Assembly: GCF_013315695.1 (NCBI RefSeq)
Contig: NZ_CP054353.1
Length of the DNA: 64,000 bases
DNA from: Escherichia coli
Lineage (GTDB): Bacteria > Pseudomonadota > Gammaproteobacteria > Enterobacterales > Enterobacteriaceae
Strand: one strand, 5' to 3'
Part shown: piece after piece, positions 48,693 to 53,275 of the stretch
How the letters are laid out: the number at the start of each line of letters is the position of its first letter
How positions within the stretch are numbered: position 1 is the stretch's first letter
Program-made: the position numbers and the translations under genes
The notes under the pieces: model-generated
The model's input: only the letters and a program-made list of their open reading frames with translations
What the model was told of the DNA's origin: nothing
The model's database searches: none

Positions 48693-48696
48693 TCCC

Positions 48697-48720
48697 TCAC
48701 GCCGGGGCTTCATCGCCCCG
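48697..48720. terminator. Hairpin between convergent sgbE and the AraC-family gene
   Basis: gccgggg-cttcatcg-ccccggc stem-loop in the 31-bp gap between the two stop codons. Confidence 0.5.
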
Positions 48721-48723
48721 GCA

Positions 48724-49539
48724 CTACGAATTGATATGTTCCTTGCTGTAACGCCGCTTCCACGCTGCTGGCGTTAAACCAGTGTGTTTGCGAAAAATCT
48801 GCCGGAAATAGCCAACGTCATTAAACCCGCACAACGCCGCCACTTCAGTGAGCGATCGCGCTTCGCTAATTAACAGCTTTTCGGCTTCGCGCACTCGCTG
48901 GCGATGAATTGCTTCTGTTAACGTCAGATGAAACACCCGCCGATAGACGCGCCCAAGATAATCGGCATTGCAGTACAGCTCGCGGGCTAAAAGCGCCGTG
49001 GAAAGCGGGCGGTGATATTGCGTGCGAATCAGTTTCTGTGCTTTCCAGGCAAGGGTGGTGCCTGCACCATCGGCCTGTTCATCAAGACGCGCGTCACGGG
49101 TGAGCTGCTGCAAAATCAGCAGCACAATAAACTCCAGCGCCGGAGTGCGTTGATGCTTTTCCTGTTCGCTTAAGAACTGGCGAAACAAGGCCACCAGCAC
49201 CTGCGGATCGGCAACCTTAGTTTGTTGCGGCACGCTAAGATGAGTGAGCCAGCGCGGATCGTTGTCCGGCGCTTTAACCTCAAAATGCAGCCAGTAAAAT
49301 TTGAGATCGGCGGGAAAATCCTCCACCCCAACATGCTGTCGGTTCGGCCAGAGTAATAAACTCTCTCCCGCATCGACCAGAAATATCCGCTCTTCTTCCT
49401 GAATCGCTAATCGACCTTTTTCGACAAAGATAATTTCCCATGACTCCAGCCGCCTTGCCGGATGCCTCCCTACGCCACGGGAAATAAATAATCCACCATT
49501 TTGCACTTTAATCGGTAACGTCATGGATAATTCGAGCAT
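48724..49539 (-). CDS. AraC/XylS-family transcriptional regulator (N-terminal cupin-type sensing domain plus C-terminal HTH); accessory relative to K-12
   Basis: 271 aa; C-terminal AraC HTH signature (..TLTEVAALCGFNDVGYFRQIFRKHTGLTPAAWKRR); divergent from the transporter gene. Confidence 0.85.
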   Translation of the reverse strand: MLELSMTLPIKVQNGGLFISRGVGRHPARRLESWEIIFVEKGRLAIQEEERIFLVDAGESLLLWPNRQHVGVEDFPADLKFYWLHFEVKAPDNDPRWLTHLSVPQQTKVADPQVLVALFRQFLSEQEKHQRTPALEFIVLLILQQLTRDARLDEQADGAGTTLAWKAQKLIRTQYHRPLSTALLARELYCNADYLGRVYRRVFHLTLTEAIHRQRVREAEKLLISEARSLTEVAALCGFNDVGYFRQIFRKHTGLTPAAWKRRYSKEHINS

Positions 49540-49764
49540 TGATATGTAATTTCCCGCTTATTCATTAATGATTAAACACATTACCTTTTGATTATTAATC
49601 AAAAACATTAATTTCACCTGATCCAATTCACACTTTTAAATTCAGGTCGGAATCGTCACCTTTTTTTACTCTTTTCTCGCCTTGTTGATATTCCCGTTCA
49701 CGGCAGAATTAATCATGTCATTGCAATAAAACTAAAAATTGCTCCCTATTCACGAGGAATATCT

Positions 49765-51165
49765 ATGACCTCTACACCGATTACTACCGCTGATATCGCT
49801 AAAGGTAAAATTGACGATGCGTTATCTGTACGGGAAAAAATAGGCTACGGCCTGGGTGACGCAGGCGGCACCGTAATAACTTGCCTGATCATGAACTTTC
49901 TCACCTTTTTCTACACCGACGTTTTTGGCTTAACTCCGGCGCTGGTCGGCACGCTGTTTATTGCACTGCGCGTGTTTGATGCCATCTCCGACCCGGTGAT
50001 GGGCGTCATTGCCGACCGGACGCAAAGTCGCTGGGGGCGCTTTCGTCCGTGGCAGTTATGGATTGCCATTCCCATCGGCATTATCGGCATCCTGACGTTC
50101 ACCGTGCCAGATGCCAGCATGGGAGTAAAAATCGCCTGGGCGTTCGGTACTTACCTGCTCCTTTCAGTCGGTTATACCGCCATCAACGTACCGTACTGCG
50201 CGCTGATCAACACCATGACCACCCGCCACAATGAAGTGATCTCCTGCCAGTCCTGGCGATTCGTTCTCTGCGGCGTAGCGGGATTTCTGGTTTCGGTAGG
50301 CTTACCGTGGATGGTAGATCTCTTCGGGCAGGGTAATGCCGCGCGCGGCTATCAACTGGGCGTCGGCGTATTGTGCGCCATTGCCGTGGTGATGTTCCTG
50401 TGCTGTTTCTTCTGGGTTCGTGAACGGGTGCCGCTCTCCACAATGGGGAAATTTACCCTGCGCGAACATCTTGCCGGGCTGCGGAACAACGACCAACTGC
50501 TGCTGATGCTGGTCATGTCTTTCCTGCTGATTAACGTCTTTAATATTCGCGGCGGTGGGTATATGTACTTCATTACCTACGTCTTACAAGGCAGTACGGG
50601 CTACACGTCGCTGTTCTTCACCATGGTCACCTTCGCCTCCATTATCGGCTCGGTGATTGTCAGCCCATTAACGCGGCGTTTCGATACCGTCAAAATTTAT
50701 TACTACACCAACCTGCTCCTCGCTTCACTGGCGGTGTTGATGTGGTTCCTGCCCTCCGGCCCGGCTTATCAAACGCTGTGGCTGGCGGTGATCCTCGGTA
50801 ATGGCGTGATTCTTGGCTTCACATTGCCACTGCACTTCTCATTGATGGCCTTTGCCGATGACTACGGCGAGTGGAAAACCCGCGTACGTTCTTCCGGCAT
50901 GAACTTCGCCTTCAATCTGTTTTTCATCAAGCTGGCCTGGGCCTCCAGCGCCGGGATCATCAGCCTGCTGTTTATTTTTGTCGCCTACCAGCCAGGCGTG
51001 GAAAACCAGACCACCAGTTCGCTTGGCGGGATCGCGGCGATGGAAACATTGCTGCCTGCGCTGTTCCACCTGCTGCTGGCGATGGCGATCCGCTTTTGCA
51101 AACTCAATAACCCTATGATGTCACGCATTGCTAGCGACCTGCGTCAGCGTCATGTACAGCCTTAA
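49765..51165 (+). CDS. Glycoside-pentoside-hexuronide (GPH) family cation:sugar symporter; accessory
   Basis: 466 aa, 12 TM, MelB/YicJ-like N-terminal motif GYGLGDAGG and DxxxD...R pattern. Confidence 0.85.
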
Positions 51166-51175
51166 GGAGCACAAG

Positions 51176-53155
51176 ATGAACATTTCGGAAGTCGATCTGC
51201 ATAAACTGACGGTCAGCGATCCGTTCCTCGGTCAGTACCAACAACTGGTCCGCGATGTGGTGATTCCTTATCAGTGGGACGCCTTGAACGATCGTATCCC
51301 AGAAGCGGAACCCAGCCATGCGATTGAAAACTTTCGCATTGCCGCAGGACTGCAAGACGGTGAATTTTACGGGATGGTGTTTCAGGACAGCGACGTCGCC
51401 AAATGGCTGGAAGCGGTAGCCTGGTCGCTGTGCCAGAAGCCGGACGCCGAACTGGAAAAAACCGCCGACGAGGTGATTGAACTGATCGCTTCCGCCCAGT
51501 GCGAAGATGGCTATCTCAATACTTACTTTACGGTAAAAGCGCCCGAAGAACGCTGGAGCAATCTGGCGGAGTGTCATGAACTTTACTGCGCCGGTCATCT
51601 GATTGAAGCCGGAGTCGCCTTCTTCCAGGCTACGGGCAAGCGGCGCTTGCTGGAAGTAGTTTGCCGTCTGACCGATCATATCGACAGCGTATTTGGTCCA
51701 GATGAAAGTAAGTTACACGGTTATCCTGGTCACCCGGAAATTGAACTGGCACTAATGCGCCTGTATGAAGTGACCGAAGAGCCGCGCTACCTGGCGTTGA
51801 CGAACTATTTTGTCGAACAGCGTGGTGCGCAACCGCACTATTACGACCAGGAATATGAAAAGCGCGGGCAGACCTCGCACTGGCACACCTACGGCCCGGC
51901 GTGGATGGTGAAAGATAAAGCCTACAGCCAGGCGCATTTGCCCATCGCACAGCAACAAACCGCCATCGGACATGCAGTACGCTTTGTATATCTGATGACT
52001 GGCGTCGCACATCTGGCGCGTTTAAGTCACGATGAAAGCAAGCGTCAGGATTGCCTGCGGCTGTGGAACAATATGGCCCAGCGTCAGTTATATATTACCG
52101 GCGGCATTGGCTCACAAAGCAGCGGCGAAGCGTTCAGCAGCGATTACGATCTGCCGAATGACACGGTTTACGCCGAAAGCTGTGCTTCCATCGGCCTGAT
52201 GATGTTCGCCCGGCGAATGCTGGAAATGGAAGGCGACAGTCAATATGCCGATGTGATGGAGCGCGCACTGTACAACACCGTGCTCGGCGGCATGGCGCTG
52301 GATGGCAAACATTTCTTCTATGTGAATCCGCTGGAAGTACATCCAAAATCGCTGAAATTCAACCATATCTACGATCACGTTAAGCCGATCCGCCAGCGTT
52401 GGTTTGGTTGCGCTTGTTGTCCGCCAAATATCGCCCGCGTGCTAACCTCGATTGGTCATTATCTCTACACGCCGCGTGAAGATGCGTTGTATATCAACAT
52501 CTACGCAGGAAACAGCATGGAAGTGCCGGTAGAAAATGGCACGTTGCGTCTGCGGGTTAGCGGAAACTATCCGTGGCAGGAACAGGTGACAATTGCGGTT
52601 GAATCGCCCCAGCCGGTGCGTCATACGCTGGCTTTACGTCTGCCGGACTGGTGCACACAGCCGCAGATCATATTGAATGGGGAAGAGGTCGAGCAGGATA
52701 TTCGTAAAGGGTATTTGCACATTACCCGCGAATGGCAGGAGGGCGACACGCTGAATCTAACTTTGCCAATGCCAGTACGTCGCGTTTACGGTAACCCGCT
52801 GGTGCGTCACGTCGCCGGAAAAGTGGCGATTCAGCGCGGCCCGCTGGTTTATTGCCTGGAACAGGCCGACAACGGCGAGTCACTGCATAACCTGTGGCTG
52901 CCCGCCGATGCGCCATTTACGACATTTGAAGGTAATGGATTGTTCCGCCATAAGATCTTAATCCAGGCACCGGGTTACCGGTATGAACAGAGCAATCCAG
53001 AGCAGCAACCGCTGTGGCATTACGACAGTGCGCCAGCCAAACGCCAGCCGCAAACTCTGACGTTTATCCCGTGGTTTAGCTGGGCTAACCGGGGTGAAGG
53101 CGAAATGCGGATCTGGGTGAATGAGGAAAAGCATTGCCATCCGGAGGTTGGATAA
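51176..53155 (+). CDS. Glycoside hydrolase family 127 (DUF1680) protein, putative beta-L-arabinofuranosidase; accessory
   Basis: 659 aa from MNISEV (AAGGAG ribosome-binding site 8 bp upstream); contains ESC...WFGCACCPPN, consistent with the Glu/Cys3 zinc site and catalytic Cys of GH127 enzymes; 10 bp downstream of the symporter gene. Confidence 0.8.
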   Translation: MNISEVDLHKLTVSDPFLGQYQQLVRDVVIPYQWDALNDRIPEAEPSHAIENFRIAAGLQDGEFYGMVFQDSDVAKWLEAVAWSLCQKPDAELEKTADEVIELIASAQCEDGYLNTYFTVKAPEERWSNLAECHELYCAGHLIEAGVAFFQATGKRRLLEVVCRLTDHIDSVFGPDESKLHGYPGHPEIELALMRLYEVTEEPRYLALTNYFVEQRGAQPHYYDQEYEKRGQTSHWHTYGPAWMVKDKAYSQAHLPIAQQQTAIGHAVRFVYLMTGVAHLARLSHDESKRQDCLRLWNNMAQRQLYITGGIGSQSSGEAFSSDYDLPNDTVYAESCASIGLMMFARRMLEMEGDSQYADVMERALYNTVLGGMALDGKHFFYVNPLEVHPKSLKFNHIYDHVKPIRQRWFGCACCPPNIARVLTSIGHYLYTPREDALYINIYAGNSMEVPVENGTLRLRVSGNYPWQEQVTIAVESPQPVRHTLALRLPDWCTQPQIILNGEEVEQDIRKGYLHITREWQEGDTLNLTLPMPVRRVYGNPLVRHVAGKVAIQRGPLVYCLEQADNGESLHNLWLPADAPFTTFEGNGLFRHKILIQAPGYRYEQSNPEQQPLWHYDSAPAKRQPQTLTFIPWFSWANRGEGEMRIWVNEEKHCHPEVG

Positions 53156-53159
53156 GGCG

Positions 53160-53270
53160 CTCGCGCCGCATCCAACGTAGGGTGCACATTGCCTGATGCG
53201 ACGCTTAACACGTCTTATCAGGCCTACAAGTCGGTGCGAGAGCGTAGGCCAGCCGCACCGACATCCACCG
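53160..53270. repeat. REP-type palindromic elements between the GH127 gene and yiaT
   Basis: gcgccgcatccaacgtaggg... / gcctgatgcgacgcttaacacgtcttatcaggcctac... REP-like units. Confidence 0.7.
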
Positions 53271-53275
53271 GTGAA

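Follow-up and report, generated by a model that had tools for sequence, protein, structure and literature searches.

Between sgbE and yiaT, in a 64,000-nucleotide stretch of Escherichia coli DNA (contig NZ_CP054353.1 of assembly GCF_013315695.1; hereafter the window), lies a three-gene module that encodes an AraC-type regulator, a cation symporter of the glycoside-pentoside-hexuronide (GPH) family and a hydrolase of glycoside hydrolase family 127 (GH127). We propose, with moderate confidence, that this module, under induction and catabolite repression, imports a small β-L-arabinofuranoside and splits it in the cytoplasm to give L-arabinose, and that it is an ancestral unit lost by deletion from the strains that lack it. 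The assignment of the substrate, which is drawn from solved relatives of the hydrolase, is rather probable in its own right, and we infer the inducer, the transcription start and the dependence on CRP.

The interval studied covers 4,583 bp (48693-53275), with the stop of sgbE (48692) just before it and that of yiaT (53276) just after it, and the list of open reading frames (ORFs) in the window places three intact ORFs within it, for which RefSeq already gives the annotations AraC family regulator, MFS transporter and GH127 protein. Its parts are as follows:

48698-48723, no strand: GC-rich hairpin, GCCGGGGC-TTCATC-GCCCCGGC, read from the sequence and identical in K-12
48724-49539, minus strand: AraC/XylS-family regulator of 271 residues (ORF; Pfam AraC_binding and HTH_18)
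49540-49764, no strand: divergent regulatory region (composition and a footprint of 22 sequences; its elements are candidates)
49765-51165, plus strand: GPH-family cation symporter of 466 residues (TIGR00792; alignment with MelB)
51176-53155, plus strand: GH127 cysteine glycosidase of 659 residues (three Pfam domains; alignments with 4QJY and HypBA1)
53146-53250, plus strand: repeat cluster of the repetitive extragenic palindromic (REP) type, between the stops of GH127 and yiaT (Rfam naRNA4 at 53146-53224)

This arrangement agrees with the preliminary description of the locus, which had placed a divergent regulator gene and two genes 10 bp apart between sgbE and yiaT. The regulator and symporter genes diverge from a 225-bp intergenic region, and the gap from the GPH stop to the GH127 start is exactly 10 bp, with an AAGGAG Shine-Dalgarno sequence just 5' of the ATG at 51176; the short gap and the Shine-Dalgarno site argue for co-transcription of the two genes. 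The coding parts have a GC content of 53-58%, similar to that of the flanks, and the divergent intergenic region one of ~41%.

The preliminary description had taken sgbE to be followed directly by yiaT in K-12, and had accordingly treated the module as an accessory addition; both points have to be given up, and the direction of change reversed. In a K-12 derivative, 346 bp separate the two genes, and in the RefSeq annotation this stretch has two partial genes, the C-terminal 102 bp of an AraC-family gene and 189 bp of a hypothetical protein, which align with window positions 48724-48827 in the regulator gene and 52850-53038 in the GH127 gene, and which are presumably the pseudogenes named ysaC and ysaD. 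Because remnants of both genes stay, the K-12 arrangement is the scar of a double deletion: the first removed 48828-52849 (~4.0 kb), and the second 53039-53248 (~210 bp), taking the REP cluster with it and proceeding through the microhomology of a CCAGCC(GCA) direct repeat at its bounds. The 189-bp remnant shares only 88-90.5% identity with whichever intact GH127 allele of E. coli it is compared with, against 95-99% for the flanks, a divergence comparable to the synonymous divergence among intact alleles (dS 0.16-0.17), and this fits an old pseudogene that would have drifted neutrally.

Among 5,426 complete E. coli genomes, the module is present in 2,324 (~43%), always on the chromosome, nearly always in single copy and at 95-100% identity, and the K-12-type scar is found in one piece in 2,461; carriers and scar genomes together cover essentially all of the 4,784 genomes in which the scar sequence has a match of any kind. 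The carriers include O157:H7, O145, enterotoxigenic strains, many human clinical isolates and the laboratory E. coli B lineage. Beyond E. coli, where one genome per species was scanned, GH127 orthologues at 78-97% identity extend across the Enterobacteriaceae, to Citrobacter, Klebsiella, Raoultella, Enterobacter, Lelliottia, Kluyvera and Kosakonia, and to Phytobacter, Leclercia, Buttiauxella, Mangrovibacter, Pantoea and Salmonella enterica subsp. diarizonae. Eighty loci were fetched from other species, and all three genes (regulator on the minus strand, GPH and GH127 on the plus strand) are present in 67 of them. SgbE is encoded directly upstream in 24 loci, all within the 67, and yiaT lies directly downstream in 19; both neighbours are as in the window in nine loci, which belong to Citrobacter, Enterobacter, Lelliottia and Huaxiibacter. 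Directly after sgbE, the module is also found in Salmonella diarizonae and in further genera. Its identities track those of the flanking core genes, such that in Citrobacter the GH127 protein is 87% and the GPH protein 90% identical, with SgbE at 90% and YiaV at 87%.

Could the module nonetheless be an island that this E. coli lineage acquired horizontally at the sgbE-yiaT junction, its ends marked by REP elements and a hairpin? Its variable presence within E. coli, the REP cluster at its right end and a 72%-identical GH127 protein in Bradyrhizobium, which leaves room for some long-range transfer in the history of the family, all lend this idea something. However, K-12-type genomes hold regulator and GH127 remnants rather than a clean empty site, the same genes occupy the same slot in several other genera, the composition is that of the flanks, the module is never found off the chromosome, and no integrase or transposase ORFs accompany it in the window ORF list. 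The junctions fare no better: REP elements are present at the right end only and a hairpin at the left, this hairpin is in K-12 too, and neither feature marks an insertion. We therefore consider an island very unlikely. Rather, the K-12 remnants, the synteny across genera, the core-like identities, the normal composition and the lack of mobility genes point to an ancestral, vertically inherited enterobacterial unit, whose variability within E. coli, K-12 included, reflects loss. The hairpin, lying between the convergent sgbE and regulator genes, is probably their shared bidirectional terminator. As for the REP cluster, its naRNA4 match (RF02564; nucleoid-associated non-coding RNA 4, which we take to be a REP-derived family) scores 68.3 bits, above the gathering threshold of 59.5, and part of the cluster also matches an unrelated chromosomal place in another genome.

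Frequent loss, with ~57% of complete genomes lacking the module, raises the further question of whether the genes are decaying relics without current function in E. coli, and one strain, the urinary tract isolate M45, is indeed annotated as frameshifted. Against this, purifying selection within E. coli is strong on each of the three genes, the ratios of nonsynonymous to synonymous divergence (dN/dS) being 0.04-0.05 for the GH127 gene, 0.07-0.12 for the GPH gene and 0.06-0.07 for the regulator gene, hence 0.04-0.12 overall. Their ORFs are intact in the window, in E. coli B and in O157:H7, a GH127 transcript has been detected in E. coli B, and the M45 frameshift hits only the last ~9 codons, past the end of the conserved domain. 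That these are mere relics is, on this evidence, scarcely credible.

The M45 locus deserves a brief description of its own. The GH127 gene is flagged as frameshifted by PGAP owing to a 1-bp deletion at window position 53127, after the conserved WVNE and the domain end, where the change is probably harmless; in other genomes, matches end near the same point. In M45 (L085 6277-9965), the yiaT side has also been replaced: yiaT and the genes beyond it are gone, and aldB comes after the module.

In the hydrolase, three Pfam domains, PF07944 (E=1.2e-111), PF20736 (1.3e-23) and PF20737 (3.6e-25), span residues 12-649 and give the three-domain architecture of GH127, i.e. a catalytic (α/α)6 domain followed by middle and C-terminal domains. 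The nearest solved relative is the Geobacillus stearothermophilus enzyme 4QJY (E=1.7e-234, 54% identity over 630 aligned positions), and HypBA1 of Bifidobacterium (3WKW) is matched over essentially the full length (E=7e-153). The catalytic roles are known from HypBA1, where Cys417 acts as nucleophile and Glu322 as acid/base, and a (Cys)3-Glu site binds the zinc (PMC8106489). The preliminary description had singled out an ESC...CACC arrangement as the expected catalytic centre, and the alignment confirms it: ESC (E334, C336) and CACC (C412, C414, C415) fall on HypBA1 E338/C340 and C415/C417/C418, the zinc-site and nucleophile residues E334, C336, C414 and C415 being identical to E338, C340, C417 and C418, and the acid/base glutamate is kept as E318 in GGIGSQSSGEAF, the equivalent of E322. 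Identical, too, are HypBA1 H142, H194 and H270, which we take to be histidines of the sugar pocket. The N-terminus, MNISEVDLHKLTVSDPF..., is without signal-peptide character, and the hydrolase should therefore be cytoplasmic, as HypBA1 is. From its identity to 4QJY and its full-length similarity to HypBA1, we predict a cytoplasmic retaining β-L-arabinofuranosidase (EC 3.2.1.185).

The symporter is confidently placed in its family, as had been claimed beforehand: it scores 333 bits against TIGR00792 (gph), whose curated cutoff is 231.35, over residues 25-462. Its best NCBIfam model is YagG-like, at 356 against a cutoff of 610, and no named GPH model, those of YagG, MelB and the glucuronide transporter among them, is matched above its cutoff; the symporter therefore belongs to a distinct, unassigned GPH subfamily. 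It aligns with MelB over the full length (4M64, E=1.2e-37), and R69, D72 and D76 correspond to MelB R52, D55 and D59, presumably the cation-site residues of helix II, with S75 in the place of MelB N58. The regulator was likewise correctly called AraC-type, since it contains a cupin-type ligand-binding domain (Pfam AraC_binding, 26-132) and an HTH_18 domain (184-263, E=4e-19), with HTH_AraC matching as well; it has the C-terminal double helix-turn-helix that defines the AraC/XylS family. It is not AraC proper, as its best NCBIfam match, the model of the arabinose operon regulator AraC (NF007860), gives only 60.6 bits, with a cutoff of 208.

How the operon would be switched on is suggested by a footprint of the divergent intergenic region, for which 22 sequences from many enterobacterial genera were aligned: most of the region varies, and four elements are conserved. 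Near the regulator gene is a perfect palindrome, TTGATTATTAATCAA (49588-49602), with a core conserved across genera. This is followed by a CRP-like site, CCTGATCCAATTCACA (49617-49632), with the conserved form GATC-N4-TCACA-TTT and agreement at 8 of 10 CRP consensus positions, and by a ~45-bp block, AGGTCGGAAT..GTCA.C.TTTTTATACT..CCTTGTTG (49644-49687); the fourth element, CA.AAT, lies 16 nt past this block and takes the -10-like form CAGAAT at 49704-49709. We infer that the block is a regulator site overlapping a weak -35, with CAGAAT as the -10, which would centre the CRP-like site ~92 bp upstream of the transcription start. A promoter scan detected no consensus sigma-70 promoter in the intergenic region, which fits dependence on an activator. 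The palindrome lies ~50 bp upstream of the regulator start codon, and could be the -10/operator of the regulator gene or a site for another factor.

The araBAD promoter offers the obvious template, with its CRP site upstream and AraC sites reaching the -35. The module would share with it the position of the CRP-like site, the block extending to a weak -35 and a regulator built from a cupin and a double helix-turn-helix, whereas the conserved block contains no match to the araI half-site consensus and the regulator is only a distant relative of AraC. As an araI half-site, the block agrees at 9-10 of 17 positions and the contact boxes do not agree, and we made no use of this likeness.

Taken together, we posit the following sequence of events. 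A small β-L-arabinofuranoside, likeliest β-1,2-arabinobiose or a fragment of the arabinofuranosyl-β-hydroxyproline type, would reach the periplasm, having been released by other microbes or by the plant from hydroxyproline-rich glycoproteins, arabinans or arabinogalactan proteins. The GPH symporter would import it, and the cytoplasmic GH127 enzyme would cleave it by means of the zinc-held cysteine nucleophile C414 and the acid/base glutamate E318, with the freed L-arabinose passing into the standard araBAD pathway. The inducer-bound activator, divergently encoded, would switch on the transporter-hydrolase operon together with cAMP-CRP. The preliminary idea of a self-contained, inducible unit for β-L-arabinofuranoside uptake and hydrolysis is thus upheld as regards layout, protein identities and catalytic centre, the substrate being deduced from the relatives of the enzyme.

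A precedent is the system of Bifidobacterium, in which β-Ara2 is freed from hydroxyproline-rich glycoproteins by an extracellular GH121 enzyme, taken up by a transporter and split inside the cell by HypBA1 (PMC8106489). The module resembles the B. longum system in having an intracellular GH127 enzyme with an identical centre (Cys nucleophile, Glu acid/base, Zn(Cys3-Glu)) and, paired with it, a dedicated importer that in our proposal would likewise carry a small β-arabino-oligosaccharide. It differs in that the importer is a single-protein GPH cation symporter, as opposed to the β-Ara2 ABC transporter of B. longum, in having no extracellular GH121 (HypBA2 there) and in its AraC-type regulator; moreover, the hydrolase matches 4QJY better than HypBA1, and the N-terminal insertion of HypBA1 is absent. 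The Geobacillus stearothermophilus GH127 (4QJY/4QK0) shares 54% identity, the same length and the same domain ends, although it comes from a Gram-positive thermophile; its gene reportedly sits with those for ABC transporters and α-arabinofuranosidases in a large cluster for the use of arabinan, and not in a three-gene unit with a GPH transporter. Closer to home, the module resembles the E. coli pairs yicJ-yicI and yagG-yagH, in which a GPH transporter is directly followed by a cytoplasmic glycoside hydrolase, and YagG provides the best model for the module's transporter. Unlike those pairs, it has a GH127 in place of a GH31 or GH43 hydrolase, its own AraC-type regulator and a transporter well below the YagG cutoff, and it is missing from K-12.

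Several considerations weigh against the proposed import and cleavage of a β-L-arabinofuranoside. Our literature search retrieved no enzyme assay, growth or induction data for any enterobacterial member; an extracellular enzyme that would release such fragments was not found in E. coli and has no counterpart in the module, so that supply would depend on other organisms or plants. Among solved structures, the ligand domain of the regulator has no close relative, that of AraC included, and the DNA-binding domains alone were matched; an attempt to read the inducer from solved AraC-family ligand domains was dropped for this reason. The candidate promoter elements are weak matches, positioned by conservation only. 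Finally, GH127 also contains an aceric acid hydrolase and 3,6-anhydro-D-galactosidases, and membership of the family alone does not fix the substrate.

This last point opens the way to another reading, in which layout and regulation are the same and the GH127 substrate is a different furanoside - of the aceric acid type, an anhydro-sugar glycoside, a glycoside of a plant secondary metabolite or a fragment of a microbial glycan - so that the product would not be L-arabinose. GH127 is polyspecific, the GPH transporter lies under the cutoffs of all named equivalogs, the hydrolase lacks the N-terminal insertion of HypBA1, and the sole NCBIfam model that matches it is that of aceric acid hydrolase (NF049879). 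However, the score against this model is 456.4 bits, with a curated cutoff of 950, and its best-scoring stretch covers residues 252-649 only; aceric acid hydrolase identity was accordingly rejected. GH127 chains with other names in the PDB (6EX6, 5MQO) give weaker, partial matches, far poorer than the full-length matches to chains named β-L-arabinofuranosidases, and the presumed pocket histidines are identical to those of HypBA1, as are all catalytic and zinc residues. We hold a different furanoside to be unlikely, if worth keeping in mind, and favour a β-L-arabinofuranoside because the nearest full-length solved relatives are named for this activity.

Does the position of the module beside the yiaK-sgbE rare L-sugar operon hold any meaning? 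It could, if the module were tied to that operon and fed a glycoside-derived L-sugar into its pathway, and sgbE does lie directly upstream of the regulator gene in the 24 three-gene loci mentioned above, in several genera. Yet in O157:H7 Z910 (L084 3255-4212) the whole yiaK-sgbE operon is deleted, a truncated remnant of yiaJ (IclR-family) directly adjoins the gene for the regulator, and the entire module is kept intact and under selection, with K-12 as the converse case; since O157:H7 keeps the one without the other, the module is independent of the operon. Furthermore, no lyxK-sgbE genes were detected within up to 8 kb on either side of three-gene loci in Pantoea, Kluyvera and Buttiauxella, and the two units are convergent, with the terminator-like hairpin between them. 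A tie of this kind is quite improbable. There is similarly a slim chance that the adjacency is functional in the sense that the GH127 substrate is no plant β-L-arabinofuranoside but another L-configured furanoside feeding the long-orphan Yia/Sgb pathway; were this true, it would provide a natural substrate for the pathway and would explain why K-12 studies found none. The flanks in Klebsiella (selB, selA, glutathione S-transferase) gave no clue to the substrate.

A few relatives outside the standard arrangement were also encountered. Bradyrhizobium species (L073-L078, L082) have GH127 proteins 71-72% identical to that of E. coli, an identity unusually high across proteobacterial classes, and have them without GPH or AraC partners; in one of these loci (L078), a gene for an S9 (oligopeptidase B-like) peptidase lies directly upstream of GH127, which hints at glycopeptide substrates. 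Enterobacteriaceae bacterium MGYG-HGUT-00110 holds the standard module (L030) and a second GPH and GH127 pair (L081 6578-9950), ~70% identical and without an AraC-type gene, which suggests a paralogous system, possibly of other specificity. A locus labelled Chryseobacterium sp. 18061 (L025) has the enterobacterial layout at nearly the same coordinates and identity as that of Citrobacter sp. 18056 (L024), from the same project, and the assembly is probably mislabelled or contaminated.

The genes have surfaced in the literature in passing. A genomic study of adherent-invasive E. coli (AIEC) counts the GH127 gene in the set of accessory genes found to co-segregate with invasion of the epithelium, and assigned its function by citing HypBA1 (PMC11879602). 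In a transcriptome of ZnO-nanorod stress, WP_001026900.1 is one of four genes up-regulated 4-5 fold, along with β-galactosidase (PMC6561948); the GH127 allele of E. coli B (L083 4849-6828) is annotated under this accession, and the induction may reflect relief of catabolite repression or an effect of zinc on a zinc enzyme. A paper on the use of plant L-arabinose by O157:H7 states that E. coli cannot access L-arabinofuranose directly, and does not mention this GH127 gene (PMC8489885), and an ileal metagenome paper deals with Bacteroides. Our search, which left most subscription journals outside its coverage, turned up no study that characterises an enterobacterial member biochemically or genetically and no experimental account of β-L-arabinofuranoside use by E. 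coli. Thus the earlier statement that no such capability has been described in E. coli holds within that coverage. Of the two things that were jointly to refute the preliminary reading through genome comparison, one has come out, the module being the ancestral state; the other, a characterised function for this particular hydrolase, has not.

The enzyme family, the transporter family and the logic of the operon are all well known, and what would be gained here is a strain-variable phenotype and no new mechanism. If our proposal is true, a large minority of E. coli strains would use β-L-arabinofuranosides from plant hydroxyproline-rich glycoproteins and pectic arabinans, a trait that what is known from K-12 could not reveal, as the genes have been deleted there, and one that is easy to test, since the module is present in E. 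coli B and missing from K-12. Whether the ~43% of E. coli that are carriers (O157:H7, the B lineage and many clinical isolates are among them) live by cross-feeding on β-arabino-oligosaccharides that other gut or plant-associated microbes set free, as a strain-variable niche trait, is, to our minds, evenly balanced. Such a trait would bear on the reported co-segregation of GH127 with AIEC invasiveness (PMC11879602) and, more broadly, on diet-dependent colonisation of the gut, cross-feeding with bifidobacteria and persistence on edible plants.

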